Below, one piece after another: positions 1,998-23,600 of a stretch of 47,567 bases of DNA; within the stretch, counting starts at the first letter, position 1, and every line of letters begins with the position of its first letter. Below the pieces are notes generated by a model, which did no database searches, was not told the origin of the DNA, and saw only the letters and a list, made by a program, of their open reading frames with translations. The DNA lies in the IMG/VR virus record IMGVR_UViG_2913112809_000003. One strand, 5' to 3'. The position numbers and the translations under genes were made by a program. This DNA is from a virus (taxonomy: Duplodnaviria > Heunggongvirae > Uroviricota > Caudoviricetes).

Positions 1998-2021
1998 TTT
2001 TATTACCTGATACAGAAAACA

Positions 2022-3122: not shown

Positions 3123-3331
3123 AACTGAAACGCCTCCTCCTCTTCCGGCTCATATGTCCAGTCCGGCAACACGATTTCCACCCCTGCGGGATACACCGGA
3201 CCAAAGTCAGCAATCCCCGGATTAGCCTCCAGTACCGCTGCCAGTGACTGGTTAAGTCCGGCACTGCCATAGTGTCTCTGACAGATATCATCCAGCATAT
3301 CGCCGTCAGTGGTCCGCCAGTTTTTCGCCAT
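3113..3331 (-). CDS. tail protein X
   Basis: 72-aa ORF between the gpU-like and gpD-like genes, the usual position of tail protein X in P2-like tails. Confidence 0.7.
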   Translation of the reverse strand: MAKNWRTTDGDMLDDICQRHYGSAGLNQSLAAVLEANPGIADFGPVYPAGVEIVLPDWTYEPEEEEAFQLWD

Positions 3332-3782: not shown

Positions 3783-3797
3783 GTAAATCCACCATGT

Positions 3798-5870: not shown

Positions 5871-5931
5871 AATCGTCTCCTTTTAAAAAAGAAAAGGCGG
5901 CCTGAGCCGCCTGAATGACAGGATGCCGGGA

Positions 5932-6450: not shown

Positions 6451-7922
6451 ACTGTCAGCTCCTCCAGCGCCAGTTTATTGTTAATCATCGCCCGCAGTGT
6501 CAGGCGCTCCAGTGGTGACTTCGGCCCAAAGTCATAATCAATATACAACCGCCCTGCCGCCAGGGTTTCTGCTGTATTCAGTTCATCATTCAGCCAGGCA
6601 CTGCCCCCGTGGATCGCGCCCAGATTTTTAAGCTGGCGCATATAGGCATTAATACTGCCAAGAATGTCTTCTGCCACATCCCGATCAAGCGGTCGGTCGA
6701 CATAAGGCAGCATGGCCTCCTGAATGCTGTCTTCAATCACATCTGCTGTACGGCGTACCGGCTCAAAACGCCACTGGCTGTGGGATGAGCACAGACGGTT
6801 CCCCCAGTGTTTAAAACCGTCGTGGCGAATAATGGTGGAGATATTTTCCATGTTCAGCAGGTTTGCTGTGCAGTTCTGCTCTCCGAGAATAAATGTGTCA
6901 ACCTGCTCCAGTCCGGTGATATTCATCACGTCCTGGTTTGACTTGGACCACCACCATCCTTTTTCGTAATCAATACGGGCACGTAGCCCTGCAGCTCGTG
7001 CTGAATACGGACGAAATACCGTCTGCCCGCTGTCATCCATCACTGACACGCGCGGACGCAGCAGCTCCACACGCCCGCCAAAGGACGCACGTCGCTGAAC
7101 CACATCCTGCGGCGTTGCCATTGAGGGAGAGTCTATATAGGCCACGGCCCGTAACTTCGCTGCGTACGTTTCCAGCGCCTTTGCCACGCCATCATCCTCA
7201 CTGTAACCAGTAGCGATAAGAATGCGCGGCTGGTAGCCCGTTTTTCCTTTGCTTTCCATCAGGGCTTCCATTGCCCGAATGACTGCCGCGCGCTGTTCTG
7301 CTTCCTTTGCCTTCGTTTTGCTTTCCGCACGCACCACAATCACCAGCGCACCTGTCTGGTCAAAAATATCACGCAGGGCCGGATATAATGTCCCGGCTGC
7401 GCCCAGTTTCCCGGCCTGAGTTAACGCCCCCGCCACCACCACCGGTGTATTAACCGGAAACGCCTCATCCTCTCCGCCGGATAAGGTCAGACTGAACGGC
7501 GACACCACATTATTTTCTGCACCCTCTGCATTCAGTGGACTGACCGCCACTGTCACTGGCGAATCACCCAGTGCATTCACCACCTCAATCACACGAGCCA
7601 CCGTGGTGTTAACCTGGCTGCGTTCATCCGTACCCAGCGTTATCATCAGGGTCGAACCTTCCAGCGAAGCCGCTGTCTGCGCGCTTTGCTTTGTGGCAGC
7701 GACAGCAACAACCGAAATATTATTGCCAGCCCTACCTTCCTGTTTCGCCGTAAAATCCAGCGCCGTTCCCAGCAGCCACGAACCGGCTGTACCGGAAGCA
7801 CACACACCACCGGAGGCGTCCGGCGCGGTCCCCACCAGGCCAATTACAGCTGTGGAGATGGTCTGCACGGCAACCGTGCCTGTCGTCAGTTCAATGGTTT
7901 CAACACCATGTAGTCCGGACAT
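6447..7922 (-). CDS. tail sheath protein (P2 FI-like)
   Basis: Start set at the in-frame ATG at 7922 preceded by GGGAGA; N-terminus MSGLHGVETIE aligns with the P2 FI N-terminus as recalled. Confidence 0.9.
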   Translation of the reverse strand: MSGLHGVETIELTTGTVAVQTISTAVIGLVGTAPDASGGVCASGTAGSWLLGTALDFTAKQEGRAGNNISVVAVAATKQSAQTAASLEGSTLMITLGTDERSQVNTTVARVIEVVNALGDSPVTVAVSPLNAEGAENNVVSPFSLTLSGGEDEAFPVNTPVVVAGALTQAGKLGAAGTLYPALRDIFDQTGALVIVVRAESKTKAKEAEQRAAVIRAMEALMESKGKTGYQPRILIATGYSEDDGVAKALETYAAKLRAVAYIDSPSMATPQDVVQRRASFGGRVELLRPRVSVMDDSGQTVFRPYSARAAGLRARIDYEKGWWWSKSNQDVMNITGLEQVDTFILGEQNCTANLLNMENISTIIRHDGFKHWGNRLCSSHSQWRFEPVRRTADVIEDSIQEAMLPYVDRPLDRDVAEDILGSINAYMRQLKNLGAIHGGSAWLNDELNTAETLAAGRLYIDYDFGPKSPLERLTLRAMINNKLALEELTV

Positions 7923-7933
7923 ACATTTCTCCC

Positions 7934-7958
7934 ATAAAAAAACCGCCCTTAAGGCGGT
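7934..7958 (-). terminator. intrinsic terminator between the fiber operon and the sheath operon
   Basis: Hairpin ACCGCC-cttaa-GGCGGT followed on the minus strand by a T7 run, lying between the Tfa stop (7978) and the sheath start (7922). Confidence 0.5.
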
Positions 7959-7977
7959 CAGATAATTCATTTCTTTT

Positions 7978-8523
7978 TCAGATATTTTGTGGTGGCTCAG
8001 GCCAGACGATATTGTTGTAAGTGGCCTTATCCGAAATATTGCTGAAATCCATCATCTGCAATTTCTTTGCGTAAATACGGTACGCCTTCAGCTTTTCTTT
8101 ATCTTCGTCGCTGATTAACCCAAGTTGCAGGTCTTTTTCCCACTCGCTGGTCACGATACTGACCTGCTTTAACAGAGCATCGCGTTCGTCTTCTGCTTTT
8201 AATTTGTAGTCGAAAACAAATTCATCATTCCGGTAAAACCAGTAGCCTGACGCTGCAATACGACGATTCGCGGTAATGTCCGGCAGTTCAATTACGCTTT
8301 TATTTTCCGGGCAAACCGATGTGATATTTTTCCCGACCCAGACGACTTCTCCCGTTTTGACATAAATCACTTTGAGAGTGTCTGGCTGAAATTTTTCCTG
8401 AGCTTCATGCCATTCCTGACCATCCTCTGAGAACAGCCACAATAAAAATTTATGCTGTCGTGCCAGTTGGTATTGCTCAATCGTTTTAGGGTTCTGAACA
8501 GAAATATTTTTTAAATGCATCAT
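7978..8523 (-). CDS. tail fiber assembly protein (second Tfa copy)
   Basis: 181-aa ORF immediately downstream of the gpH-like fiber gene; C-terminal region is similar to the Tfa at 1-603. Confidence 0.75.
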   Translation of the reverse strand: MMHLKNISVQNPKTIEQYQLARQHKFLLWLFSEDGQEWHEAQEKFQPDTLKVIYVKTGEVVWVGKNITSVCPENKSVIELPDITANRRIAASGYWFYRNDEFVFDYKLKAEDERDALLKQVSIVTSEWEKDLQLGLISDEDKEKLKAYRIYAKKLQMMDFSNISDKATYNNIVWPEPPQNI

Positions 8524-8525
8524 AA

Positions 8526-9914
8526 TTACAAACTCGCTACATTCCGCCAGACGCCATTAATCAGAACCTGCACCGGGCGGGCATTCGCCCAGTCCACGCT
8601 TTCGCCACCATCAACACCGCTCAGCAAATGGCCTGATGGTGCATTCCCTCCACGCCCAATCCCAACCGCACTCCCCAGTCGCACATCCTGTACGATCCCT
8701 GTTTTCATCTGGTAACGGGCATCAAAGTTTCCATAATTTGATGGCACTACCTGTCCGTTTACAGCGAACGTGATGCTGTTATCTGTATTCCTCTGGCTGT
8801 AAAAATGCCAGCCTGAATCATCACCAAGTTCAACAACTACGGGTCTGGATGAATGCCCCCATAAATTAAACGTTGCATTTTTCGCAGATTCGTTAGTGCT
8901 GGATAGCGTAAATTTCCTGGCATTTCCGGCCTGAATATTTTTTAACGCTATTGCCACCCCATTCTGAAAACGAAATACATGCTGTCCATTCGCATAAACA
9001 TCCAGAATGCCGTCGCCGTTTTGTTTTATACCTGTATCGTTATCTCCGAGAGCAATTGAGTTACCGCCCAGTGCGTTCTGAACGCCGATACCCAATGCAC
9101 CATTCACCTGAGAACCACCGCCAACAGACACTTTGTGGGACATGGATATCTCACCCGTCCGCAAATTTATGGTGAACGGACGCAGGGGGCCAATATCGCC
9201 ATTTTCACCCTGACCTTCACTGGTAGGGATAAGGTGCAGGCACTCTTCCGAACGACGAAAAATCAGGCCAAAAGCTTCGTTGAAAATCCTCAGCGCATTC
9301 ACACCATGGATTTTCAGTTCCCCGCTCATGGTGTCACCATCACGCTGAACGGCATTTTTTGCCTTGTCTACCGTGGGTTTTAATCCGAGGTTATCAATTG
9401 CTTCGTCATTGTCTTCCACATCTGAAAGATTGTTTTTTCGTTGCAGATAACGCCTGTCACCTGTTTCCTGGGTAATAATGGCCCTTTCAGGATCAATCTC
9501 CAGCGTCACATTCTGGGTGTGGGTAAGCGCCAGAACCATTGTCAGTATAACTTCTTTGATAACAGAATCAGTCTGCGCCGGTAAATACGTGTCGGGATAA
9601 CGACCATAAGCAATCAGCGTACCGCTGCTGCTAACCATTCCCAGCTCACGCAAGGTTCTTCCGGGATATTTTTTACAGTCAATGACAATGTCACCACTGA
9701 TAAATCCCTGCTCAACCTTACCTTCAGAAAACACTTCCTGACCAAATTGCCCCAACAATGCCGACATTGAAGCCATCTCATCCGGTGTTGATGGTAACGT
9801 TTTACCGCCGCCATCCCCCGTCAGTACATGAGTGATCGTAACCACCTGACCAGTCTGATAAGCCGATTCAATTTCGGCTGCTCCTTGTATTGTTAACGTC
9901 AGTCCTGATGGCAT
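8526..9914 (-). CDS. tail fiber protein (P2 gpH-like)
   Basis: 462-aa ORF in the H position of the V-W-J-I-H-G block; Gly-rich C-terminal receptor-binding region. Confidence 0.8.
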   Translation of the reverse strand: MPSGLTLTIQGAAEIESAYQTGQVVTITHVLTGDGGGKTLPSTPDEMASMSALLGQFGQEVFSEGKVEQGFISGDIVIDCKKYPGRTLRELGMVSSSGTLIAYGRYPDTYLPAQTDSVIKEVILTMVLALTHTQNVTLEIDPERAIITQETGDRRYLQRKNNLSDVEDNDEAIDNLGLKPTVDKAKNAVQRDGDTMSGELKIHGVNALRIFNEAFGLIFRRSEECLHLIPTSEGQGENGDIGPLRPFTINLRTGEISMSHKVSVGGGSQVNGALGIGVQNALGGNSIALGDNDTGIKQNGDGILDVYANGQHVFRFQNGVAIALKNIQAGNARKFTLSSTNESAKNATFNLWGHSSRPVVVELGDDSGWHFYSQRNTDNSITFAVNGQVVPSNYGNFDARYQMKTGIVQDVRLGSAVGIGRGGNAPSGHLLSGVDGGESVDWANARPVQVLINGVWRNVASL

Positions 9915-9926
9915 ACATTCTCCTTA

Positions 9927-10496
9927 TCAGTCTGTAAGTAACGAACAATAATTAAACGCATTAGCAACAGATACCGGATCCGGAAACTTTGCCATAAATT
10001 CTGACTTACTGCCTGTTACATTGCTGCACTGGAAAAACAAATATGACAGATTGCATTTTTCAGCAAACACATCCGGGAATATATCATTAATGTCCATTGC
10101 CAATAATGTGCACTCACGAAACATTTCGGTCATGTCGACACTACTTTCCCGATGATTAATCACCCCACAAGGAACCTTAATCAATGACGAACACCATCTG
10201 AACATGCCTCTGCTCACGGTAAGTGGGCAGTCTGCAAATAGTTCACTCTGAATCTTCGTTAATGCATTGCAATTCGAAAAAATATAAGACACATCTTTCA
10301 GCGAAATACATCCTCTGAATGTGTCAGCCGGTAACATAATAAGTTTTCTGCAATTTGCAAAAACGGAATTCATTGATATCAGAGATGTACAACCAGAAAA
10401 AATCCCTTCACCGATCTCAGTCGAAATATTACAGTTAGCAAACGTTTCTGATGCCGATTTAACTGACACACACCCCGAAAAAAAGTCTGTCACCAA
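9927..10496 (-). CDS. C-terminal leucine-rich-repeat segment, out of frame with the upstream gpI-like gene
   Basis: 189-aa ORF with a TTG start only; continues the roughly 23-residue F-x-x-C-x-x-L-x-x-I repeat of the upstream ORF; the two frames meet at a T7 tract (plus 10478-10484). Confidence 0.5.
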   Translation of the reverse strand: MVTDFFSGCVSVKSASETFANCNISTEIGEGIFSGCTSLISMNSVFANCRKLIMLPADTFRGCISLKDVSYIFSNCNALTKIQSELFADCPLTVSRGMFRWCSSLIKVPCGVINHRESSVDMTEMFRECTLLAMDINDIFPDVFAEKCNLSYLFFQCSNVTGSKSEFMAKFPDPVSVANAFNYCSLLTD

Positions 10497-12339
10497 TGCT
10501 TTCCAGTGATTTGCAGTTATAAAACACCCCGTTTATTCCTGTCAGCTTCTGACATCCCTCGAATAAGCCATCGCCAACATGGGTAATACTGTGGCAGTTG
10601 TAAAACGCATTATTAGCAGAACGAAGATTATCTGCCCCAGAAAACAATCGCGCAGGTATACTGCGTATACTGTCACACTCATTAAATATGCCATCAATAT
10701 GCGCAATTCTGCTTCTGATAACATCCGCCCAGCCACCGGGAATGGTTGTCAGTGTTCGGCAACCATAAAACGCACAGGACAAATCAATTGATGATGCGTC
10801 GTTTTCGTTCTGCTCCCCAAATATCGCCGGGAGTTCCGCAAGATTACAACACCCAGAAAACGCCCTGTAAAAATTCTGAAGTCTGTGAGCTGGAATAGCG
10901 GGGGCATTAACCATCTTCTCACACCCGGAAAAAGCATTTTCAAAAGTCAATGCATTCTCCATACCAGCGAATAATGTCTCCGGAACCCGGACGATCTCCG
11001 AACAGCCACAAAACAGTTTTGAAAGTATGTTCGCGCTTGATTTTGTCGCAAATAAAAGTGGGATGTCTGTCAGGGCAGAGCACCCATAGAATACACCAGA
11101 CCAATTCACCACAGCTTCGCACCTGGCAAAAAGATTTTCAGGTAATTCATGAAGAGACGAACACCCCCTAAAGGCATTCTCAAATGAAAGTACGTGAGGC
11201 AGATTATCAAAAGAACCTGCGTGAATTTTTCGCAATGCCCACTGCAGATTCGCAAACCACGACATGTCTTTTCTGGAACCACTGACGCGGATGATCTCCA
11301 GGAGTGGATTGGTGTTGTTTACTGCCTTCGGGGTGTAGAATGTCAGACTTTCCGCGCCCTTAATCGTCAGTGTAATTTCTTCTCCGACCGGCAATGTGCG
11401 GGTAGCTTTGACCACATCCTCCTTAATCACATAATCTCTGCTGTCCAGTCCATCACCATAATCAATAGTGAAGTCGTTATCCTGGGGATCGATAAAAAAC
11501 AGTGGCATGCTGGCGTTATCTGCCCGGATAATAACCTGAACAACCGACACAACACTTACCGGCAGTCTGGCAACCACTCCATTTACCGTTGATACGACGA
11601 CTGTAGTTCGACCAGACTGTTTCCCTGTCAGAGTAACCACATCACCAGAAACACTTATCGCGGCCACACTGTCATTTTCGATTTGTACAGAAAATACGCG
11701 GGAATCAGCAATCAGTGGTAGCACCGTCACCTGCACAGAAACAACGTCTCCAGGGGCCAGTCGTAAGTTGTCTGATGACAACTGTATTTCTGACGGCAGT
11801 ATCCTGTTTTTCATCTTTTCCGTCGCTGTCACATACCCATAGCTGTATCCGTTCCCCTGGCAGCCCCCATAAACATGAATACTGAACCAGCTGCGCAGAT
11901 TTTTGGCACGTAATACGGCATGTTTCAGATCCTGGTGGTCACTCATCAGGACAGGCAAGTCCTTCTGCTCCACATTCAACCGGAAGGTATAGGGATCACC
12001 AGGCGGCGTCTGCTCATACCATTCCACAATCTGCGACCGGAACGGACTGTCAGCCAGCGACGCCATCAGCGCCGCTTTAGTCCCTCTGTGGCGATGGATA
12101 TAGGCGGCACGCTTTATAGCAGAACGTTTTTCCACCTCCGTCCAGTGTTCATTCCAGGTATCTACTGCCATTTCCCAGGCCAGCCATGGCAGCAATTCAG
12201 CAGGACATAAATCGGGATTTTTCACATAGCGGATCAGACAGACCGCTATGTCTGCCAACATATCTCCGGCGACACAGTCCACCACCCGCTCTGCCCGGCT
12301 GGCATTGACCGGCAGTATGCTCCTGATATCGTCATTCAT
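10459..12339 (-). CDS. baseplate protein with gpI-like N-terminus, Ig-like middle region and C-terminal leucine-rich repeats
   Basis: 626-aa ORF in the P2 gpI position, overlapping the gpJ-like gene; the first ~170 residues resemble gpI, followed by a Val/Ser/Thr-rich beta region and then Cys-containing leucine-rich repeats. Confidence 0.8.
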   Translation of the reverse strand: MNDDIRSILPVNASRAERVVDCVAGDMLADIAVCLIRYVKNPDLCPAELLPWLAWEMAVDTWNEHWTEVEKRSAIKRAAYIHRHRGTKAALMASLADSPFRSQIVEWYEQTPPGDPYTFRLNVEQKDLPVLMSDHQDLKHAVLRAKNLRSWFSIHVYGGCQGNGYSYGYVTATEKMKNRILPSEIQLSSDNLRLAPGDVVSVQVTVLPLIADSRVFSVQIENDSVAAISVSGDVVTLTGKQSGRTTVVVSTVNGVVARLPVSVVSVVQVIIRADNASMPLFFIDPQDNDFTIDYGDGLDSRDYVIKEDVVKATRTLPVGEEITLTIKGAESLTFYTPKAVNNTNPLLEIIRVSGSRKDMSWFANLQWALRKIHAGSFDNLPHVLSFENAFRGCSSLHELPENLFARCEAVVNWSGVFYGCSALTDIPLLFATKSSANILSKLFCGCSEIVRVPETLFAGMENALTFENAFSGCEKMVNAPAIPAHRLQNFYRAFSGCCNLAELPAIFGEQNENDASSIDLSCAFYGCRTLTTIPGGWADVIRSRIAHIDGIFNECDSIRSIPARLFSGADNLRSANNAFYNCHSITHVGDGLFEGCQKLTGINGVFYNCKSLESIGDRLFFGVCVS

Positions 12340-13246
12340 CGGTTGTCTCCACCTTGTTCAGTGTTACCTTACGGCACCACGGTGCCTGCCCCATCGCAGG
12401 AACGATATCGCTGGCAGGAGAGGTCAGATTCACCGTAATCACCCCGGTCTGGTGCAGTGCACCATCCATGCCGGAACGGGATGCCACTGAACCAATCCTG
12501 TGGACACTGTCAGTGTAAGACTGCAGCGCCTTACGGGCATTTGCCATTACCAGTTCACCATCCAGTCCGTAGGGAATATGAATATTCGCCACCACGTCGT
12601 AGGGAATAATTTCTGCCGCCCGGACACTGACAAAATCCGTCAGGGGACGGGTTTCATCATCACTGACTGATGCTGCCACCTTATCCAGCAGGGGTTGTGA
12701 TGCGGTGCCATTTCCTGACCGGGATAACACATAAAGAAAAACCCGCCCTTCCTGCGAATGCGTTTCCGGCCCGTAGGCTTTCACATCCAGCACATCAGGA
12801 TCAGCACTTTGTGCAAAATAGTGGTACGCATTTTTCGCGCCAGCGGTGCTGAGCCGTGCCCATGACAACTGAATGCGTTCGCGAAAGGCGTCATCATCTT
12901 CATACACCGCCGGCGTGGGCGGAATGGTGCTGTCGTCTGCAGGGGTAATTACCAGCCGCTGTACCTGATAATTCGCGCCAACCTGATCCAGATCGTTCCC
13001 TCCGGCACTGGCAAGCAGTACTGCACGAACTGCATCATTTATTTGCTGGCGCATCAGCGCCACCCGAAAAGCCAGTGCCTCCGCCCATTTATAAGCAGGA
13101 TCAGATTCCACCAGTGCTGAAAACAACGTATCCAGCTCCTGATACTTCGCCACTATCTGAGAGACGAGCATTGCGGTATCCGGCACTTCCACAGCATCCG
13201 GTACCGGTATCGCGGACAGATCAATGATTGCCTGAGACATTGCCAA
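12332..13246 (-). CDS. baseplate assembly protein J (P2 gpJ-like)
   Basis: 304-aa ORF in the J position between the W-like and I-like genes. Confidence 0.85.
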   Translation of the reverse strand: MAMSQAIIDLSAIPVPDAVEVPDTAMLVSQIVAKYQELDTLFSALVESDPAYKWAEALAFRVALMRQQINDAVRAVLLASAGGNDLDQVGANYQVQRLVITPADDSTIPPTPAVYEDDDAFRERIQLSWARLSTAGAKNAYHYFAQSADPDVLDVKAYGPETHSQEGRVFLYVLSRSGNGTASQPLLDKVAASVSDDETRPLTDFVSVRAAEIIPYDVVANIHIPYGLDGELVMANARKALQSYTDSVHRIGSVASRSGMDGALHQTGVITVNLTSPASDIVPAMGQAPWCRKVTLNKVETTDE

Positions 13247-13577
13247 TTTTTATCTCCTCGAGTCGAATCGTGTCCTGAGTTTCGTTGTTCACCCCGACAA
13301 GCGTCAGCCAGGCGCTCCCTTCTCCTGTCCACGTCACCTCCACCCGCCGGAGGGTCAGGCGGGGTTCCCAGCGTTCAAGGGCGGTTGCCGTTTCACGGAC
13401 AATTCTCACCCGCGTGAAATCATCCTGTGGGTTATCAAGCAGACTGAACAGTCTGCTGCCGTATTCCCTGAGCAGTACCCGGCTGCCGACCGGCGTTGAC
13501 AAAATATCGGTGACGGACTGGCGCAGATGTTCGTTACCGTGCAGATATCTGCCGGTGGCTGAATCAATACCAATCAT
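13221..13577 (-). CDS. baseplate protein W (gpW/gp25-like)
   Basis: 118-aa ORF between the V-like and J-like genes. Confidence 0.8.
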   Translation of the reverse strand: MIGIDSATGRYLHGNEHLRQSVTDILSTPVGSRVLLREYGSRLFSLLDNPQDDFTRVRIVRETATALERWEPRLTLRRVEVTWTGEGSAWLTLVGVNNETQDTIRLEEIKIGNVSGNH

Positions 13578-13610
13578 GTTGTTTATTCCGGAAAAAAACT
13601 GAAAAGGAGA

Positions 13611-14234
13611 TTACATTTGCTGACCAGGCTGTCCGGTGCTGCCACCACTGTCGCCCCGGTGATTGTGACCGTTATAGACAAGCCGGATTTGACTCATCGT
13701 TCCGTAATAATCAGAAACCTCACCACCGACCGTCAGATCCGCCTTAACTACCGCTTCAGTATTCATGGTTGCTTTACCATGTACGGTCAGGGTGTCTGTG
13801 ATTTCTACCGGACCGTCCAGGGTTCCCTTGCCGGTAATTTTATAGCTACCGCCTTCAGCCAGCGTGATGGACAGGGCATTAGCCTTACGGTCGTAACGGA
13901 TTTCCGTTCCGGTATCAAACAAAATAACATGTTCGTATTTACTGCCCTCAGGGACAGGGATAGCGTCAATATTGGCCCCCGGATACACCCGACCGTTACG
14001 CAGATCGCCCGCCTCCGATATCACCGTAACGGCATCGCCGGGGGCCGGATAATTACTGACCTGCATGTAGCGCCCGGACTGCACCTGAATCCAGGGTAAC
14101 GGCGGCGAAAGCACATCCCCGATATCCACCCGAACCATCACCGGACTACCCGGTATCACTTCCTCCACCACCCCACGCCGCACCATATCCGCCACCCTGC
14201 GGCGTAACTCTGCCACTTCATCTGCCAGACTCAT
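13611..14234 (-). CDS. baseplate spike protein V (gpV-like)
   Basis: Start assigned to an internal ATG at 14234 (MSLADEVAELRRR); the ORF's 5' extension overlaps the upstream gene; an alternative ATG lies upstream. Confidence 0.75.
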   Translation of the reverse strand: MSLADEVAELRRRVADMVRRGVVEEVIPGSPVMVRVDIGDVLSPPLPWIQVQSGRYMQVSNYPAPGDAVTVISEAGDLRNGRVYPGANIDAIPVPEGSKYEHVILFDTGTEIRYDRKANALSITLAEGGSYKITGKGTLDGPVEITDTLTVHGKATMNTEAVVKADLTVGGEVSDYYGTMSQIRLVYNGHNHRGDSGGSTGQPGQQM

Positions 14235-14784
14235 TGCCGGTGCCCTCGGTTTTCCAGATAAGACGATAATCCCGCTCATGTCTCTTGCCAGTTTCCGGTA
14301 CTTTCCCCAGCCAGACTTCCTGTAATGGCGCACCTGCCGTAACCGCGAACGGATCTTCCCCGACAGGAATATCCTGTTCGAAAGAAACACGGAAAACGAT
14401 GTAGTCATCCAGAAGCCGGTCGAAGGTATCCACCTCTGCATCAATAAAAACAGCCGGATCAACGTTATCCAGCCCGAACGTGGCCCCCTCAATCCAGTCA
14501 GACAAATCCATCGCCAGGCAACGGGCAAAAATCTGCGGTTTTGGCACGTTTTCCGTCTTTCCGGCCCGGTCTGTCACCACAAACAGATCACATTTCAGCG
14601 TGACCCGCGTCTGCCCGTCGGCAAACTGAGTCTTGTCCCAGCCAGGTACATCCACAAACACGACAGGCGTCACCAGTTGCGTCACTTTTTCCGGGTATTC
14701 ATCAGCATCTTCCACCCAGGGAATTTGTTTCAGACTGTCAATCACCGCCTGATGCCAGGCTCCCATCATCAATGGCTCCATCAC
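14218..14784 (-). CDS. hypothetical virion protein (tail completion region)
   Basis: 188-aa acidic ORF between the head genes and baseplate V, in the position of P2 R/S-type tail completion genes. Confidence 0.5.
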   Translation of the reverse strand: MMEPLMMGAWHQAVIDSLKQIPWVEDADEYPEKVTQLVTPVVFVDVPGWDKTQFADGQTRVTLKCDLFVVTDRAGKTENVPKPQIFARCLAMDLSDWIEGATFGLDNVDPAVFIDAEVDTFDRLLDDYIVFRVSFEQDIPVGEDPFAVTAGAPLQEVWLGKVPETGKRHERDYRLIWKTEGTGNESGR

Positions 14785-15503
14785 TCCAGCCCCTTAAATA
14801 CCCGGAATTTCAGTTCATGCTCAAAATTTTTCAGGATCAGTGCTTCCGCATCCGGAAAAACAAAATCCTCTATACGGTTCAGCATGGCTTCATAAATATC
14901 AATTTCCGCTTCACGCACCCTCCGTCGTCCGGATGCCTGTCGGACCAGTATCGTTTTCCTTTTTGATATACGTCCGTTACGATTTTCCGTTTCGAACTGG
15001 TTGATGAAGGCATCATCCGTTGACCAGGTGGTGACAGGCAGGGATTCCCCGGAAGGTTTAAAACGGATCTCCCGCGCCTTCCTGCGGTGGGAAGCTGGTG
15101 CAAAACGTCCCCGCTCATCGCGCAACTGATGACGTTCGCCGCGTCGTCCCCCACTGATGCGTCCGCGCAGATCACGTACTTTGATGGCATTCAGACCAAA
15201 CCACACCTTCGCCTCATCAAACTCATCACCGTTACGACGAATGACAAAATTATGCAGAACACGCTTTTTGATCATTTTCTGACTGCGTGGGGCAACCTGT
15301 TTTTTAAACTCTGCCATAGCCTTCATCCGCAGTGCAGACGAAGCTCTTTTCAGTGCCACGCCCCAGGCTTTACGGATCTGGCTTTTTGAACCGCCCAGTT
15401 TAACGATAATTTTCAGCACCTCATCTTCATCAATATCGACGACGAGGTTTCGTGCCAGCCGTCGCTGCCGGGCACTGCTTCGTTCATGCTCTCTGACTGC
15501 CAT
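14781..15503 (-). CDS. putative virion morphogenesis / tail completion protein
   Basis: 240-aa basic ORF overlapping its neighbours by 4 and 20 nt within the head-tail joining region. Confidence 0.5.
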   Translation of the reverse strand: MAVREHERSSARQRRLARNLVVDIDEDEVLKIIVKLGGSKSQIRKAWGVALKRASSALRMKAMAEFKKQVAPRSQKMIKKRVLHNFVIRRNGDEFDEAKVWFGLNAIKVRDLRGRISGGRRGERHQLRDERGRFAPASHRRKAREIRFKPSGESLPVTTWSTDDAFINQFETENRNGRISKRKTILVRQASGRRRVREAEIDIYEAMLNRIEDFVFPDAEALILKNFEHELKFRVFKGLE

Positions 15504-15891
15504 AACGTTTACTCGGTCGTTCCGGCGCGGAAGGTGTATTTCTCCCCGGCTCTCCCCGCGCGAGGGTGATGGTAATCACACCCTGACCCGCAGTGCCTGA
15601 CTCATCCCAGCCGGGATCGAGTACCTGGTAGGGTTCGCCGTGGATCATGACCCTGTCATATTTTTTCAGACCGGCGGCCCATGCACTCCGGGTAAATAAC
15701 ACGGGCGCAGTATCACGAATTTCGCCGCTGCCAGTGTTCATCCCGGTGTTATCTGCCGGGGCATCGAAAACGGCACGGATTTTTCTTTCCGTGCCGCCAG
15801 GATATATGCTGATTTCCGTCCCCATCGTATCCAGGATGATGTCATCCGCATCACTCATGGCCTGATCGAACAGATTATCGAACATCATCAC
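15484..15891 (-). CDS. putative head-tail joining protein
   Basis: 135-aa ORF two genes downstream of the major capsid gene. Confidence 0.5.
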   Translation of the reverse strand: MMMFDNLFDQAMSDADDIILDTMGTEISIYPGGTERKIRAVFDAPADNTGMNTGSGEIRDTAPVLFTRSAWAAGLKKYDRVMIHGEPYQVLDPGWDESGTAGQGVITITLARGEPGRNTPSAPERPSKRYGSQRA

Positions 15892-16256
15892 TCCCGGATT
15901 TTTTCTGCCAGACCGTCCGCCAGTAATGCAGGAACGGCAGCTTCATTAACCAGCACAACACTGGAGGCCCGGGCGAACATCAACATCTTTCCTGTCGCTG
16001 CATCACAGGCTGGCATATGTGCCGTTTTCAGCATGCGCACCCGAACGAGTCCCCGCTCAGAATGCATCCCGTCGCCGGATACGTTGTTGTCCACCTCTTC
16101 CGCCCCTGTATCCCCCACATCAAATCCAGCGGCCTCCTCTTCCCATTCCGCCAGGCGCTGTTCAAGATCGGCTTTTGAACCTGAAATATCTGCTTCACGC
16201 CCCAGAATCACTGCCAGCTCCTGAAGGCGTTCCGTCATCTGCTCTTTTGTCATCAC
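15888..16256 (-). CDS. putative DNA packaging / head stabilisation protein (FI position)
   Basis: 122-aa acidic ORF immediately downstream of the major capsid gene, as lambda FI is. Confidence 0.5.
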   Translation of the reverse strand: MMTKEQMTERLQELAVILGREADISGSKADLEQRLAEWEEEAAGFDVGDTGAEEVDNNVSGDGMHSERGLVRVRMLKTAHMPACDAATGKMLMFARASSVVLVNEAAVPALLADGLAEKIRE

Positions 16257-16303
16257 ATCTCTCCCGTGCGCTAAAGAAAAAGGCGGGAATATCCCGCCCA
16301 GTC

Positions 16304-17332
16304 TTATTTCACCTGAACCACCACAAACGCATCCGGATCCGGCAGCACCATCAAAGGTGCAGACTGCGTCATGGTATATTCACAACCAGGATCACCCACT
16401 TCCTCCCAGTGTTTCGGATAACGAATTGCAGAGGTGATCCCTTCACTCAGCGCCTGATTATCCTGAATAGCACCATAGCAACGGACGCCTTCCGCCTGGG
16501 TATTTCCCAGAATCAGTGTACCTTCAGGCAGATAACGCTGTTCATCCCCGTTTTCGTCAACATACGTTGTCTTCGCCACCACGACAGCCAGATCGCCGTA
16601 CCAGCCCTTAAAGGAAACCACGGAACCCAGATCTTTCAGTGCCGTTTCCAGCTCAGATTTGGAGCCACGGCGTGTATCCAGTTTTTCACGGAACAGTTTA
16701 AAACCGTTCAGCATACGCCAGACCGTGCCGTCCATAATCGCGATATTGATGGTGCCGGAAGCAAAATCGCAGTACGCATCCAGATCATGCGTCGGATCGA
16801 AGGTGTCATTATTCTGCTGTGACCATTCGCGTCCGCCAGCCTGTGTAATGTTATTGGCGGCAGAGCGCCCAAAATCCACTTCCACCGTCTCAAACTGCTC
16901 GCCGCTCATGGTGTATTTACCCTGCAGAACGGCGCTGACTGCCTGCATTTCTTCCACCTGCACAATTGCCTGCTCCTCCTGTTTCAGGTTGTCCGTCAGA
17001 ATACGCAGACGGCGGTAGGCCGGGTCATTAAGGCGGGCCGGATCTTCCCCCGGAAGACGTTCTACCGCCTGCTGATAATCAAAGCGGTGTTTTGGTTTTA
17101 CGTAGCCGGGACGTAACACGCGGGTTTCACCACCACGGCTGCGCAGCACTTTGCCTGACACCACCGGAGACACATACGCCGCAACCGGCGTTTTGCCGGT
17201 AATTTTATCCAGCATGACTTCCTGAGTATGAAAAGTGATCGTGCGGCGAAAGAACAGCTCCAGAAACAGCGCACGAAATTTCACTTTCTGCTCGGTGTAC
17301 CCGAGTAACTGACGCGTGGTAAATAACCCCAT
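16304..17332 (-). CDS. major capsid protein (lambda gpE-like)
   Basis: 342-aa ORF sharing long motifs with lambda gpE as recalled, for example AIVQVEEMQAVSAVLQGKYTM, KLDTRRGSKSELETA and MTQSAPLM. Confidence 0.95.
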   Translation of the reverse strand: MGLFTTRQLLGYTEQKVKFRALFLELFFRRTITFHTQEVMLDKITGKTPVAAYVSPVVSGKVLRSRGGETRVLRPGYVKPKHRFDYQQAVERLPGEDPARLNDPAYRRLRILTDNLKQEEQAIVQVEEMQAVSAVLQGKYTMSGEQFETVEVDFGRSAANNITQAGGREWSQQNNDTFDPTHDLDAYCDFASGTINIAIMDGTVWRMLNGFKLFREKLDTRRGSKSELETALKDLGSVVSFKGWYGDLAVVVAKTTYVDENGDEQRYLPEGTLILGNTQAEGVRCYGAIQDNQALSEGITSAIRYPKHWEEVGDPGCEYTMTQSAPLMVLPDPDAFVVVQVK

Positions 17333-17401
17333 AATTTATTTTCCTTCATAAATACAAACGGGCCGCATCGCGACCCGTTTTTTCAGTTAATCACTTCACC
17401 A

Positions 17402-17737
17402 TCAGGCGTGGCTGATGGCACTTCCCACAAAAGCGTTGGCTTTTTTCACCGCATCCACCGAACCAGGCCAGACCAGCGATTCAGTGGCAAACGTACCGCT
17501 TTTGTAATACGTCAGCGTGGGCTCGGTCCCGGCAAGCGCCAGAGCCAGCACCCCCACAGCCGTTCCGGCTTTCTGACCATCCCAGACCACCAGTTTTCCG
17601 GTGGCGTCATCCACCATCAATGGCGTCAGTGCAGGCGTGGCAGCACTGATACCACTGGTGGCTGTTGCGGTATGCGCCGGATCGCTTCCGGCAAAAATGC
17701 GCACATCTGCACGCTTTTCCGTGGTGGTTTTAATCAT
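17402..17737 (-). CDS. head decoration protein (lambda gpD-like)
   Basis: 111-aa ORF with the motifs SDPAHTATA and TYYKSGTF, between the protease and capsid genes. Confidence 0.85.
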   Translation of the reverse strand: MIKTTTEKRADVRIFAGSDPAHTATATSGISAATPALTPLMVDDATGKLVVWDGQKAGTAVGVLALALAGTEPTLTYYKSGTFATESLVWPGSVDAVKKANAFVGSAISHA

Positions 17738-17776
17738 TTTCTCAGTCTCCTGATTTATCTGAATTCCGGATACCGC

Positions 17777-19396
17777 TTACGGCATACTCATCAGCAGATC
17801 TTCTTCCCCACGCCCGGCAGTTCCGCCACCGGAAACCGCGCTGGCGGCATGCTGTGCCATAAAGCGATCAAAAAGTGTTTCCTGTGACGGTTGCGATGCC
17901 GCCGGTGCGGCTGCCAGCAACGTTTTCGCCTGCTCCACCGTCATTCCCGGTTGTTCTGCCAGCGCCTGTGCGAGTTGCTCGCGCCCTTTCGCCTCGGGCA
18001 GTGCCATAATTTGATTGCCAATACTTGCTGAACCAGCAACCGGTGCCGCCGCCAGTAACGTTTTCGCCTGGTCAACAGTCATTCCCGGCTGTTCAACCAG
18101 CGCCTGTGCGAGTTGTTCGCGCCCTTTTGCTTCCGGCAACGCCATAATCTGATCGCCTGTACCTGCAGCACTGGCAGCAGGGGCTGCCGCCAGAAACGCT
18201 TTCGCCTGCTTCACCGTCATCCCCGGTTGGCCTGCCAGCATCTGTGCCAGCTGTTCACGCCCTTCTGCTTCCGGCAGCGCCATAATCTGATCACCCGTGC
18301 TGCCAGTACCGGCAACCGGCGCTGCTGCAAGCAACGTTTTCGCCTGCTCCACCGTCATACCTGGCTGGCCTGCCAGCATCTGTGCCAGTTGCTCGCGCCC
18401 TTTCGCCTCCTGACAATTCAGGATCCCCATCACACGCTGATTTTCCTGGGCCACCGCTTCAGCAACGGTGAGATTTTTAACAGTCATTGCATTCTCCTTC
18501 GTAACAGAGTCATTCAGTGCAGAAACCATCACTTCAACGGCATCTGCAGCATTAATCAGTTGATCAGCCAGGCCTGCATCAATGCCTGCCTGACCGTCAT
18601 AAACGGCAGCCTCGGTATTCATCACCGTCTCTGAACTCAGCCCCGTGTAAATTGCCACCTTGTCGACAAACATCCGGCGGGCCTCATCAATACGGCGCTG
18701 AAAATCCGCACGCACACCTGCCGGCAACGCCTGAATACTATTGCCGTCAACCTTGTGCTGCCCGGAGTAAATCAGCGTGATATCCACCCCTTCCTGTGCC
18801 AGTTGTTTCTCGTAACTGGTGTGCGCCATCATCACGCCAATCGAACCAATTTTTGCCGTCTGCGTGACCAGCCGACGAGTACAGGCTGCTGCCAGCAACA
18901 TGGCGGCTGAACAGGCCATGTCATTACACAGCGCCCACACAGGTTTCTGTTCCCGCAGACGGTAAATCATGTCAGCGCAGTCAAACGCCCCGGCAGCCTG
19001 GCCGCCCGGACTGTCGATATCCAGCAAAATGCCGCGCACATCCGGATCATTCACCGCCATCTGAAGGCGGGCCGTCAGGCCGTCATAGCCGGTCATGCCG
19101 GAATAAGGCCGCAGAGTGCCCAGTTTATGCACCAGTGTGCCGCTCACCGGCAGAATGGCGATACCATTCTTCACCTGGTAGCTCTTTGCCGGACGCTGAC
19201 CGCCCGCCATATAGTCAGTCACCGCCAGTTGCATGCCGTCCGCATCAAGCTGAACGTCCAGTTGCGGAACAACAAGGCTGCCTGCCCCCATCTCCTTACC
19301 CAGCGCGCAAAAGAAAACCCGCGCATAGGCGGGTTCCAGTAAAAGCGGTTCATTAAATGCCATGGCAGCAATATGCGATAAATTACGACGCATCAC
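17777..19396 (-). CDS. head maturation protease / scaffold (lambda gpC/Nu3-like, S49 peptidase)
   Basis: 539-aa ORF; N-terminus MAFNEPLLLEPAYARVFFCAL matches lambda gpC as recalled; C-terminal part carries tandem repeats of the Nu3-like GREQLAQ..PGMTV motif. Confidence 0.9.
   Translation of the reverse strand: MMRRNLSHIAAMAFNEPLLLEPAYARVFFCALGKEMGAGSLVVPQLDVQLDADGMQLAVTDYMAGGQRPAKSYQVKNGIAILPVSGTLVHKLGTLRPYSGMTGYDGLTARLQMAVNDPDVRGILLDIDSPGGQAAGAFDCADMIYRLREQKPVWALCNDMACSAAMLLAAACTRRLVTQTAKIGSIGVMMAHTSYEKQLAQEGVDITLIYSGQHKVDGNSIQALPAGVRADFQRRIDEARRMFVDKVAIYTGLSSETVMNTEAAVYDGQAGIDAGLADQLINAADAVEVMVSALNDSVTKENAMTVKNLTVAEAVAQENQRVMGILNCQEAKGREQLAQMLAGQPGMTVEQAKTLLAAAPVAGTGSTGDQIMALPEAEGREQLAQMLAGQPGMTVKQAKAFLAAAPAASAAGTGDQIMALPEAKGREQLAQALVEQPGMTVDQAKTLLAAAPVAGSASIGNQIMALPEAKGREQLAQALAEQPGMTVEQAKTLLAAAPAASQPSQETLFDRFMAQHAASAVSGGGTAGRGEEDLLMSMP
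17900..18400 (-). repeat. in-frame tandem repeats (about 3.6 copies of ~138 bp) inside the protease/scaffold gene
   Basis: The protein segment GREQLAQ(M/A)LA(G/E)QPGMTV.QAK..LAAAP...G..IMALPEA(E/K) recurs at residues 333, 379, 424 and 471. Confidence 0.8.
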
Positions 19397-20954
19397 CTTT
19401 TTCTCCCGTTGTCTGTCGGATCTGCTGCTGAAACGTATCCTTTATCCAGATGGGGCGGGGAAGACCAGCCGACTGTCGCTCCTGGCTTTCACGCAGTTGC
19501 TGGCGGAATATTTCCTGATAGTCATCGCCCATCAGGGCCAGCTCCTTCTCGTATGTGCTTAAACCACCTTCAATACGCATCACCGCTTCCTGCACTTCCT
19601 TAAGGCCATCAATCGCCATGCGACCGGCACCAATCCACTCGGCACGACACCATCCGGAACGGGCCTCCCAGAATGAAAAACGGGATTTCGGCGGGCGGAT
19701 CACACCGCGAATAAGGGCTTCCTCCAGCCAGCAGGCAAACATCTGTGATGCCAGTCGGCTGGCCACAAATTTTCGTTTCCCCATAAAATACCGCCATGAT
19801 TCATTGGCGGATGCCCTGGCGCTGGAATAACTGACCTGTGAATAATCACGGGAAAGCTGTTCATAGGACACGCCAAGTCCGGCAGCGATGTAACGTAACA
19901 GCGCCTTTTCCAGTTCAGAGAAACCATTATCTGCATTTTGCGCTGTCTGCAGATTCAGTGAATCCCCCGGATAAAGGTGCGGAATACGTACCCCGCCCAG
20001 TTTTACCGTATTGGTAGCGTAATAACGTGCATAGCCTTTCATGATGGTGTTCAGGGGGTTTTTACCGCCATCTCCCACCCCGGCGATATATTCAAATGCT
20101 TTTTCCGAATCCAGTGTGGATTCAATCGTCGCGGCATACATCGCCCGCACCACCGCCGACTGCAGTTGCGTAGCCTGCAGTGTGTCGAGCATCTTGAGAC
20201 GCTCCATGACAGAATAAAACTGGTTGGCCCCGCGCGTCTGCCCGTCCTCCTGCGGCTGAAACACATGGATCATTCCTGGTCGCCCGGAGGGCAGCGTCGC
20301 CGCAATCCGCGTCCAGTTGCTGACACCGTAACCGGGCCAGTCATCTTCCTGAACATGGTAGGCCAGTGCTTTTCCGTACCGGTTGATTTCCACCCCGGCA
20401 CGCATAAAACGATCGCCGGTACCATAACCGGGTGTACTGACACGTTTCGGGCTGATGGTCTTGAATTTCGTCCGGAATAATGACGTGGATTCCGTATCCC
20501 ATACGGGCTGGACAAAAATTTCACCGTTAAACGTATGAACGCCCACCCCTTCACGAATAAATTCGGTAAACGAGCGACGCCCCTCCACATCCATCGAACC
20601 AAACACAGGATCGCAATATTCCATCCACGCCGCCTCCACATCTTCAATAAAGGCATGCGAATCTGCTTCCGACATCCCCAGCCAGCGCCAGTTGGGCCGG
20701 TAACTCAGGCGAAACATGTGCCCGACGATATGGTCTTTATGAATTTCAACGGCGTTTGCGGCAATACCGTTATTGCGGACCAGATCATCCGCACGGGCGT
20801 TACCCAGCTGAATGGAAGGCAGCAGCGCCACATCCGCACTTTCCGGTGCAGGCAGCCATTCCGCAAGCTGCCCGCCAAATCCGGTACCACCTCCGGAATA
20901 CCCCATACTCTGCCGCAGAGGCTGCCCGTGAAGATCCACCAGTTCCCCGTTCAC
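19383..20954 (-). CDS. portal protein (lambda gpB-like)
   Basis: 523-aa ORF with long matches to lambda gpB as recalled, for example GQTRGAN.FYSVME, LRYIAAGLGVSYEQLSR and SGRMAIDGLKEVQEAVM. Confidence 0.9.
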   Translation of the reverse strand: MNGELVDLHGQPLRQSMGYSGGGTGFGGQLAEWLPAPESADVALLPSIQLGNARADDLVRNNGIAANAVEIHKDHIVGHMFRLSYRPNWRWLGMSEADSHAFIEDVEAAWMEYCDPVFGSMDVEGRRSFTEFIREGVGVHTFNGEIFVQPVWDTESTSLFRTKFKTISPKRVSTPGYGTGDRFMRAGVEINRYGKALAYHVQEDDWPGYGVSNWTRIAATLPSGRPGMIHVFQPQEDGQTRGANQFYSVMERLKMLDTLQATQLQSAVVRAMYAATIESTLDSEKAFEYIAGVGDGGKNPLNTIMKGYARYYATNTVKLGGVRIPHLYPGDSLNLQTAQNADNGFSELEKALLRYIAAGLGVSYEQLSRDYSQVSYSSARASANESWRYFMGKRKFVASRLASQMFACWLEEALIRGVIRPPKSRFSFWEARSGWCRAEWIGAGRMAIDGLKEVQEAVMRIEGGLSTYEKELALMGDDYQEIFRQQLRESQERQSAGLPRPIWIKDTFQQQIRQTTGEKGDAS

Positions 20955-21160
20955 AGCCCCACTCCTGCCGGGCCGCGACGCCGTCCGGATACGCCCAGCG
21001 CACTCTCCAGCTCTTCAATATACTGGCGTAATTCACCAAGCGTCGCCCGTGAATACTGAACCTGACGCCCGTTCTTGCTGACAGAAACCACTGCACGTCC
21101 AATCATCAGTTCATGTAATGCCCGGCGGGCATCACAGAGCATTTCATGTGTATAAACCAT
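20951..21160 (-). CDS. head-tail joining protein (lambda gpW-like)
   Basis: 69-aa ORF between the terminase large subunit and portal genes. Confidence 0.8.
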   Translation of the reverse strand: MVYTHEMLCDARRALHELMIGRAVVSVSKNGRQVQYSRATLGELRQYIEELESALGVSGRRRGPAGVGL

Positions 21161-21163
21161 CTT

Positions 21164-23080
21164 TTATCCTCCACTCAGCGCAGCCGCGATTTCTTCCAAG
21201 CTCATCTCATCATCGTCCTGCTCATCTCTTCTGGCACGGGCCAGTGCTTCAAGATCCAGTTGCCACCGCTGAACTGAAATACGCAGGGCAGCATAGGCAT
21301 ATACCAGGCAGTCGAGGGCTTCATTGCGTCGCCCTTTTTTATCCCACAGCAGTTTCACCCTGCCGTTAACCACCTTCTCCACCAGCTCTTCTGCCACAAT
21401 CTGGCGCGCCTCTTCTTCCGAAAAGATGTCCGGATTATCCGGAAAACGGAAGACATACGGAGCGGCTTCACTGGCAGATACCACCGGCAGGGCAAAACGG
21501 GCATACAACATTTCCTTGACAGTATCGGAGCCCACCTCACACAAAAACACACCACGCTGGTTGCGCTGTTTGGGCATGGTGATCACCGGCTTGCCGTACA
21601 CCGACGCCCCTTTAATAGGAAGCACAAAAAAAGTGCCATGTTTTCTGGAACGTTGATACACAATATCCTGGTCGATACCACCGGTATCCCAGCAGACACG
21701 GGAAATGGAAATTTCAGTGCCGTCAGCATGGCGATATTTTTTTCGGATCACTGCATCAACACGTTTAAGGGTGTCCTCGTCTTCCGGTCGCCCCATAATA
21801 ATTTGTTTATCAATCAGAAAGGCTTCTTCGCCGGGAGCCCAGCCCCAGACATAAATTTCATAGCGATCTTTCTGGGAGTCGATCCCGGCGGTCAGGTAAA
21901 CCACCCGCAGGGGAACCTGCGCGCCATAGTGACAGACTTTTTCCAGCAATAACTCGAAACTCAGCTTTTCTGCCACAGCCTCTTCATAGGGTTCTCCGAG
22001 CGTGGTGTTAATAAACGTCTTGACGCCGTTCGGATCCTTCAGCGCATCCAGCCAGTCATAAACAATCTGTACCCAGGTGGTGAACGGACTATAGGCCGTC
22101 CAGATGTGGAAAGTGACGGAGCGCGGTGGCGGCATCTCCTCACCACCGACGCTGAAAAATGCCAAACCGTCACGCGTCCACATCCCTGTGTTGTCACAAA
22201 TCCACCGCCCGTCGGTCTGGTCAAGATCAGACTGACGGACCACACAACCATTATGTTCACACAGGTAATACACCGTTTCTGGTTTACCCTTCTCCCATTT
22301 CAGGCCAAACGGCGTCGCATCATCGCCAAACTTCAGATACTGGGCCTCCCCGCAATGTGGGCAATGGACATAAAACCGCATGAAATGCGCAGATTCATTC
22401 GCGGCTTTTTCAATCTGACAGGAACCTTTAATTTTTGGCGTTGAGCCGCGTATGGATTTAGGCCATACCGAACCTTCGATACGTTTATCGCCAAGCAGTG
22501 TTGGCGAACCTTCTTTTTCCACATCCGGTTCAAACGAGGAGAGTTCGTCATAGCAGACCACATCCACAGATTTTTCACGGTAGTTTTTAGCTGCGGCACC
22601 ACCCAGGCACCAGAAACCCACGCCGGAGGAAAAACGCTTCAGGGTGAGTGTATTATCGCGATGCTTTCTTCCGAACCATGGAGCCAGCTCCAGCAATGCA
22701 GGGACATCCCTGATTGTTGGCTCAACATGAGATTTCATGAAATCTTCTGCCGCAGAATCTGTTGGCTGAAAAAGCAGACTGTTACGGGATTTATGCTCAA
22801 TAAAATAGGCCTCCACCCCCAACAGCATTTTGGTGTAACCAACGCGCGCCGATTTAATCAGATTAACGGTGCGGATCCGGTCATTTCCCATGCTGTTCAT
22901 AATGGCAACCTGAAACGGCAGTGTTTCCCATTGCCCGGGGGTATATGAAGATTCTTTCGGCAGATAATAATGTTGATCAGCCCACTGAACTGTCGTCAGT
23001 GGAACCGGAATATTGAGAGATAAAAGCCCTGTAGCTATCGCACCGGCTGCATTAGCTGCCTTCTGTGCGTTTGAAATCAT
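21164..23080 (-). CDS. terminase large subunit (lambda gpA-like)
   Basis: Start assigned to the ATG at 23080 preceded by AGGTGG; extensive similarity to lambda gpA as recalled ([50 protein letters not shown]). Confidence 0.95.
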
Positions 23081-23600
23081 CAATCCACCTGCCTGTGTTC
23101 TCACCGGCTTTAGCTGCAACGTTGGAGGCTTTTGCGATTTCAGTTTTCACCACATCAAGGTGTGAAGGTGAAATATCCGGATATTTACGCTGTAATGTCA
23201 GCGGCACACGTACAAGTATCCCCGAAATCTCCTGTGCCACACGTTGCAGAATGAAGGTAAACAATTCCGTTTCCAGCACCAGTCCTTCTTCGCGGGCATT
23301 TTTCAGCTCCTGTGCGTCAGCCTGTGCTTTGGTGAGCCGATAGCGTTCATAGTCAATGGTGCCGGGTTGTAAATCTGATTCTGCAGCCGCACGCAAATCT
23401 TCCAGTTCTTTGCGGAGCTTTTCGTTTTCGATATCTTTTTCCCGCTGCGCATACCACTCAATGGCTTCTGCAGTATTGAACATGGCCTCGATACCTTTGC
23501 CTCCCCCCGACAAAATTCTCAGCCCCTGACTTTGCCAGCCAGTGATTGTTCTGACATCGCACTCAAAAATCTCTGCCAGTTTCTTTTTGTTAACCTTCAC
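23052..23600 (-). CDS. terminase small subunit (lambda Nu1-like)
   Basis: 182-aa ORF with an N-terminus ([12 protein letters not shown]) and motifs ([34 protein letters not shown]) closely matching lambda Nu1 as recalled; overlaps the large subunit start. Confidence 0.9.

Follow-up and report, generated by a model that had tools for sequence, protein, structure and literature searches.

Why should the head protease gene of a tailed phage carry four in-frame copies of a motif of which its phage lambda counterpart, gene C, has one? The question is raised by the gpC-like gene of a virus of the class Caudoviricetes (IMG/VR record IMGVR_UViG_2913112809_000003), the whole analyzed stretch of which, 47,567 nucleotides (nt), is called the window here; positions are those of the window. 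A reading of the sequence alone, made without database searches, had described in this gene about 3.6 tandem copies of a unit of 45 to 46 residues. Here, we report on the anatomy, history, and likely role of this array. The unit is probably a conserved helical module of lambda-type gpC/Nu3 scaffolds, which occurs four times in the full-length protease and likewise four times in a predicted nested scaffold protein, where it would act as a multivalent interaction module.

The array and its predicted nested scaffolding frame

Tandem Repeats Finder detected a single strong array in the window (17902 to 18410; period, 138 bp; 3.7 copies; 80% matches; 0% indels; score, 589), with all remaining arrays scoring 49 or less. 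An independent repeat search returned one direct-repeat family at 138-nt spacing (17898 to 18134, 18036 to 18272, and 18174 to 18410; 78 to 80% identical). The sequence-only reading was right in both its consensus and its unit size. The array lies in frame within a minus-strand open reading frame (ORF), in the 3' third of an S49-family head protease gene. Read from a GTG at 19396, the ORF encodes 539 amino acids (aa), and from the adjacent ATG at 19393, it encodes 538 aa; RefSeq homologues of the protein use the ATG start (N terminus, MRRNL). The features of the gene are as follows, with the basis of each in parentheses.

17777 to 19396, minus strand: gpC-like head protease/scaffold gene (ORF list, Pfam, and identity to lambda gpC)
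18524 to 18958, minus strand: S49 (SppA/ClpP-like) peptidase domain, aa 147 to 291 (Pfam PF01343 and SppA structures)
18485 to 18499, minus strand: internal Shine-Dalgarno sequence AAGGAG (18499 to 18494), 6-nt spacer, and ATG (18487 to 18485; Met304) (sequence)
17777 to 18487, minus strand: nested Nu3-like scaffolding frame, 236 aa, predicted (sequence, homology, and PHROG)
18317 to 18433, minus strand: repeat core R1, aa 322 to 360, VMGILNCQEAKGREQLAQMLAGQPGMTVEQAKTLLAAAP (motif match)
18179 to 18295, minus strand: repeat core R2, aa 368 to 406 (motif match)
18041 to 18157, minus strand: repeat core R3, aa 414 to 452 (motif match)
17903 to 18019, minus strand: repeat core R4, aa 460 to 498 (motif match)
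17780 to 17902, minus strand: nonrepeated C-terminal tail, aa 499 to 539, AASQPSQETLFDRFMAQH...EEDLLMSMP (alignment)

The four 39-aa cores found in the translation have the form (V/G)xxI(L/M)x(C/L)xEAxGREQLAQxLxxQPGMTVxQAKxxLAAAP and the consensus GDQIMALPEAKGREQLAQxLAxQPGMTVEQAKTLLAAAP. They are joined by 7-aa linkers rich in Gly, Ala, Ser, and Thr, and the last core is followed by a unique 41-aa tail. Upstream of the array, the Peptidase_S49 domain was matched by Pfam with an E value of 2.4e-33, and a PDB sequence search aligned the protease part to the Bacillus subtilis SppA structures 3rst and 4kwb (E value, 2e-16), returning structures (SppA, ClpP) for this part of the protein only. The gene had been called gpC-like; this holds, as the protease part is 55% identical to lambda gpC (BLASTP), and the gene is flanked by a lambda-family portal gene on one side and gpD- and gpE-like genes on the other, each encoded on the minus strand. 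A 173-aa antisense ORF over the array (18113 to 18634, plus strand) mirrors the repetitiveness of the coding strand, and the ORF list gave no evidence of its being a gene.

An internal Shine-Dalgarno sequence and ATG at Met304 predict the start of a separate Nu3-like scaffold protein, with which the array would form the bulk of the predicted scaffold as well as the C-terminal part of the protease. By its position, the array appears to belong to this nested frame, making up most of the predicted 236-aa protein (18 aa, then the four cores and three linkers, then the 41-aa tail). A Shine-Dalgarno sequence with an ATG is found at the equivalent place in four relatives, phage 21, and lambda; those of the window fall where phage 21 gene 6 has its annotated ribosome-binding site and start, and the ATG falls where lambda has Met309. 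According to database annotation, translation of lambda Nu3 begins at an in-frame start within gene C; the Met309 start gives a Nu3 of 131 aa, and the scaffold of phage 21 is 200 aa long. PHROG 8399 (head scaffolding protein; 131 positions) was matched by four stretches of the window protein, as was PHROG 8940 (capsid assembly protein). Nested starts within each unit were considered and rejected; GGTGA precedes the ATG of R2 only, and the Shine-Dalgarno-like sequence is not conserved in R3 and R4.

The array is real and is widely distributed. Of 5,426 complete Escherichia coli genomes, 105 cover 80% or more of the array region (query of 784 bases). Of 60 matches listed, 59 were full-length (775 to 784 bases; 85.7 to 95.3% identity) and the last was a partial plasmid match; among the listed full-length matches there was no change by a 138-nt unit, and the few that differed did so by 3 to 9 nt. 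Four-copy 538-aa proteins number in the hundreds in the databases, one cluster alone holding 826 member sequences. The four-copy state is stable within its own lineage, not hypervariable. The longest exact run common to two window copies is 29 nt, so the copies can be told apart individually by assemblers. The sequence-only reading had the copies diverging slightly; divergent they are, but the word "slightly" does not stand, since the cores are 70 to 85% identical in nucleotides and 46 to 64% identical at third codon positions. Although short-read assemblers can mishandle a tandem repeat some 0.5 kb long, these genomes, proteins, and identities leave next to no chance that an assembler wrongly expanded a single or triple motif, and the earlier view that the repeats are no assembly duplication was upheld.

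Copy number, age, and selection

Relatives overall carry one, two, three, four, or five copies; the best 120 homologues divide into 2 with two copies, 74 with three, 42 with four, and 2 with five. By positional orthology, the five-copy E. coli allele (L003) has the arrangement of the window plus a duplication of R2: its R2 and R3 are 99% identical in DNA and both are orthologous to window R2 (93 to 94% nt identity), and its R4 and R5 are orthologous to window R3 (93% nt identity) and R4 (91% nt identity), respectively. In a four-copy locus of Citrobacter portucalensis (L004), R2 and R3 are 100% identical, and in a three-copy Cronobacter locus (L005), R1 and R2 share an exact run of 87 nt. Hybrid units also occur. 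The two-copy protein P0113 corresponds to the three-copy P0102 with R1 and R2 fused inside their common EAKGREQLA segment, and an R3/R2 hybrid unit is present in P0088, a four-copy protein of the phage 21 lineage. Near-identical neighboring copies and hybrid units point to unequal homologous recombination and gene conversion, so that the variability of copy number by recombination, which had been put forward as a possibility, is borne out by one to five copies in relatives.

Some homologues are aberrantly long. In P0044 (657 aa), a 156-aa block that starts at the end of the protease domain and takes in two and a half units is repeated; P0043 (610 aa), apparently a fusion or a misannotation, bears the name "baseplate assembly protein V"; P0046 has 743 aa.

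A profile of the motif gave 327 matches among 1.84 billion representative proteins. The best 150 of the 327 include 137 single-copy proteins, 8 with two copies, and 4 with three; the multicopy forms are mostly from Enterobacterales. Species-representative genomes gave 28 single-copy and 5 triple-copy loci, a ratio that comes from 33 loci and two exact peptide patterns only and is a sample, not a census. One copy is the usual condition, with arrays a specialty of a single enterobacterial group; the repeat class is common in prophages of E. coli, Salmonella, Citrobacter, and Cronobacter. The distance from the motif to the C terminus is 37 to 55 aa in full-length S49 fusions, except in a few read-through or fusion proteins with longer extensions; in full-length single-copy relatives, it is at least 37 aa (median, 49 aa). 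Distant single-copy S49-scaffold fusions have a strongly conserved motif followed by a lineage-specific tail.

Lambda-type single-copy C genes (60 to 62% identity in the best segment) were also met in assemblies of unrelated organisms (L013 and L015 to L022; Akkermansia metagenome-assembled genome, Chromatium, Neobacillus, Kitasatospora, Shewanella, Pseudomonas, Oceanobacillus, and Leeuwenhoekiella). Those of the contigs that name their coverage are often about 48.4 to 48.5 kb long with coverage near 1, and these C genes are most likely phage lambda control DNA contaminating the assemblies.

Synonymous divergence (dS) between the window copies is 0.63 to 1.22, and the ratio of nonsynonymous to synonymous divergence (dN/dS) is 0.05 to 0.32; the duplications are therefore old, and the amino acid sequence has been preserved in each copy. 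Orthologous dN/dS, calculated between the window and four other four-copy alleles, is 0.07 to 0.11 for the four cores, 0.04 to 0.07 for the protease domain, and 0.25 to 0.46 for the three linkers. Every core is under purifying selection nearly as strong as that on the catalytic domain, and the linkers are relaxed.

Possible roles of the repeated module

AlphaFold2 was run on aa 306 to 539 (33-sequence alignment; mean predicted local distance difference test [pLDDT] score, 69.6; predicted template modeling [pTM] score, 0.27). All four units were modeled alike, each with three helices, QIMAL (short), REQLAQML, and VEQAKTLLAA, the first two separated by a turn (PEA) and the last two by a loop (GQPGMT). 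The unit helices have pLDDT scores of about 64 to 85 and the linkers about 50 to 60; given the pTM score and the low linker scores, no fixed or confident packing between units is predicted. The model suggests "beads on a string," that is, small helical modules on flexible linkers. The last unit and tail modeled alone (mean pLDDT score, 58.6) were left out of fold searches. AlphaFold gives the tail two short helices, with low to moderate confidence.

A Foldseek search of the 234-aa Nu3-like model against the PDB gave no match at an E value of 0.001 or less; its top matches (CAMP factor, DNA polymerase beta, and albumin) had template modeling scores of 0.1 to 0.16 and were rejected as meaningless. 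Pfam and NCBIfam held no model for the repeat. Subthreshold matches to Bac_DNA_binding (the helical N terminus of HU; 19.5 bits against a cutoff of 22.4), DUF732, NicBOxredNboR, and PucB were set aside as generic helix-turn-helix resemblance, not homology.

We propose that each unit may fold, possibly only on binding, into a small helix or helix-turn-helix module, and that such modules on flexible linkers would make each scaffold or protease chain multivalent (tetravalent) for the module's partner. The partner would most likely be the inner surface of the gpE-type shell, other scaffold molecules, or both. Multivalency would raise avidity and cross-link neighboring subunits during procapsid assembly, after which the protease would degrade the scaffold. 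The candidate partners and the decoration gene next to the array are encoded as follows.

19383 to 20954, minus strand: lambda-family portal gene, a possible scaffold partner (Pfam Phage_portal_2; E value, 1.9e-95)
17402 to 17737, minus strand: gpD-like head decoration gene (Pfam HDPD; E value, 2.1e-22)
16304 to 17332, minus strand: gpE-like major capsid protein gene, the likely scaffold partner (Pfam Phage_cap_E; E value, 4.6e-66)

Several points weigh against this proposal. Use of the internal start is deduced from sequence and homology. Confidence in the AlphaFold models is only moderate (69.6) or poor (58.6), which fits lambda Nu3 being partly disordered, as Medina et al. reportedly found in 2011. 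The PDB sequence search and Foldseek gave no sequence or fold similarity to the P22 scaffold domain or any other solved one. The module is not at the extreme C terminus, as it is in P22; capsid binding could instead lie in the unique 41-aa tail behind it.

There is a serious alternative, to which we give some chance, although a low one: the module would be a docking or cleavage determinant for the S49 protease, or a portal-binding element, and capsid binding would reside in the unique tail. Repetition would then let a longer scaffold still be cut into fragments small enough to exit the shell, and one unit with its linker is about 5 kDa. Across distant S49-scaffold fusions, conservation is much stronger in the motif than in the tail after it, which would suit a conserved partner such as the protease or portal, and relations of C with Nu3 and of Nu3 with B have been reported for lambda. 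However, no cleavage sites are known for the gpC-like family, and the alternative overlaps partly with a multivalent module.

Improbable is the explanation by which the extra units are a neutral spacer that arose through slippage or recombination within a disordered part of the scaffold and is tolerated without a role of its own. The region is predicted to be flexible, and the occurrence of three, four, or five copies with near-identical capsid proteins, and of one in lambda, suggests that no particular number is essential. Yet the low dN/dS of each core, near that of the protease domain and below that of the linkers, shows each unit to be individually constrained and argues against filler. 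The paralogous copies have kept 72 to 92% amino acid identity despite near-saturated synonymous divergence, and the four-copy state has persisted in a lineage with DNA divergence of up to 14%.

More improbable still is a size ruler, in which the number of units sets the length of the scaffold and hence the capsid size or triangulation number. Capsid size is set by scaffold-type proteins in other systems (Sid of P2/P4 and CpmB of 80alpha/SaPI), and Nu3 length rises from 131 aa in lambda to 200 aa in phage 21 and 236 aa in the window. Nonetheless, the capsid proteins of heads with three (L005), four (window and L004), and five (L003) copies are 95.6 to 98.2% identical, the gpE-like protein of the window being 95.9 to 98.2% identical to those of its three-, four-, and five-copy relatives. 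All are 342 aa long, and lambda gpE, to which the window protein is 58.5% identical, has 341 aa. These near-identical proteins occur with three, four, and five units; therefore, the assembly system tolerates differing unit numbers. The sequence-only reading had suggested that copy number could alter scaffold or capsid assembly; the comparison argues against a large effect of copy number on capsid geometry. The prophage in the window is also lambda-sized (at least 47.5 kb), and the linkers, if flexible as modeled, would speak against a rigid ruler.

The number of module copies may act as a "valency dial" that can evolve in lambda-type scaffolds, with one to five modules on nearly identical capsid proteins tuning the avidity, stoichiometry, or kinetics of procapsid nucleation; alternatively, changes in the array might alter recognition of the scaffold or protease by host defense. 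Type I CBASS (antiphage systems that signal by cyclic oligonucleotides) are reported to respond to prohead protease-scaffold proteins of T1-like phages. We regard these two ideas as speculative and doubtful. Were either of them true, the natural series of alleles would allow a direct test of what scaffold multivalency does, and alleles of one to five units are a ready-made experimental system for relating scaffold valency to capsid assembly. To our knowledge, no function has ever been mapped to this motif, the most conserved element of lambda-type scaffolding proteins. Annotation calls for caution here, since the label "S49 family peptidase" alone hides both the nested scaffold and the repeat.

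Prophage context and known systems

The head and packaging module of the window (15484 to 23600) is of the lambda type (Nu1, A, W, B, C/Nu3, D, E, FI, and FII), with the gpA/Nu1 terminase upstream of the gpC-like gene and FI/FII downstream. Positions 1 to 15503 encode a P2-type contractile tail (gp25/W-like protein, Baseplate_J, Tail_P2_I, fiber, sheath, tube, gpU, and gpD). The Citrobacter (L004) and Cronobacter (L005) relatives of the head module have lambda-type Z/U siphovirus tail genes instead; hence, the head and scaffold serve both tail types.

The P2 gpI-like baseplate protein (10459 to 12339, minus strand; 626 aa) is covered by Tail_P2_I at aa 9 to 149 only, and a subthreshold match of its C terminus to BspA-type leucine-rich repeats suggests an unusually long extension. 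Two cassettes of tail fiber and tail fiber assembly (Caudo_TAP) genes are present, one at 8526 to 9914 and 7978 to 8523 (minus strand) and one at the left end (600 to 1997 and 1 to 603). Five sizeable minus-strand ORFs of the neck and tail region (14781 to 15503, 14218 to 14784, 13611 to 14528, 9927 to 10496, and 3798 to 5450) had no Pfam match at an E value of 0.001 or less. One of the five, of 240 aa, directly follows the FII-like gene, and it is present after the head genes of the five-copy L003 too.

A full-length RecE-like exonuclease VIII (893 aa), RecT, and an integrase are encoded at the right end (42100 to 45583 and 46332 to 47567, plus strand), and the window also carries P-like and DnaT-domain replication genes, a Q antiterminator, and an N6/N4 DNA methylase. 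With these genes, the window is a nearly complete lambdoid prophage.

The scaffolds of P22 (gp8) and phi29 (gp7), which bind capsid protein via a helix-turn-helix, are, like the window scaffold, transient internal scaffolds for an HK97-fold capsid protein. They have a short helix-turn-helix interaction module, whereas that of the window is helix-turn-helix-like by prediction only. The window module is also repeated, has a 41-aa tail after it, and is fused in frame to the maturation protease; the P22 module is C-terminal.

Closer to the window is lambda gpC/gpNu3, with the same B, C/Nu3, D, E order, a nested in-frame scaffold start (a predicted one in the window), and an alignable motif and tail. 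Lambda gpC has the motif once, at aa 361 to 399, as the sequence-only reading had stated. R1 is 64% identical to the lambda motif; by BLASTP, it aligns inside the main gpC alignment, and R4 with the tail aligns to the C-terminal 73 aa of gpC/Nu3 (45% identity). Lambda Nu3 (131 aa) has a 52-aa segment before its one motif, whereas the predicted scaffold of the window (236 aa) has an 18-aa segment before four. Relations of Nu3 with E, itself, C, and B are reported for lambda from yeast two-hybrid and earlier work, as is a requirement for Nu3 in portal incorporation (PMC3224144). The two-hybrid result for Nu3 and E was not mapped to the motif (PMC3224144).

The closest system is phage 21, whose head operon record (M81255.1; 1990s) was found by tblastn of phage records. 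Its genes 5 and 6 likewise comprise an S49 protease gene with a nested scaffold start (a predicted one in the window) at a homologous Shine-Dalgarno sequence and ATG, followed by tandem in-frame copies of a motif of about 38 aa and a similar tail (F..FM...LMxMP). The record annotates repeat regions in these genes as "Tri1 box," "Tri box," and "Tri3 box," each "function unknown; putative"; at gp5 aa 324 to 358, 371 to 407, and 418 to 455, these coincide with matches of the motif profile at aa 318, 368, and 415. Literature searches on Nu3, phage 21, and scaffold repeats found, within the library searched, no paper describing the repeat. Phage 21 has three copies and the window four, and the copies within the window are 72 to 92% identical in amino acids, whereas those within phage 21 are only 49 to 54% identical. 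R1, the only core with a clear counterpart in phage 21, is 79% identical to Tri1; R2 to R4 are 82 to 92% identical to one another and 54 to 59% identical to Tri2 and Tri3, without a clear one-to-one counterpart. As R2 to R4 are closer to each other than to Tri2 and Tri3, the four-copy state seems not to be simply "phage 21 plus one," and the comparison suggests separate amplification or homogenization after the two lineages split. The array is an extra-copy version of the repeat already annotated in phage 21 and no new type of system; what is added is purifying selection on every unit, gain, loss, and homogenization of units by recombination, and a natural series of one to five units on near-identical capsid proteins.

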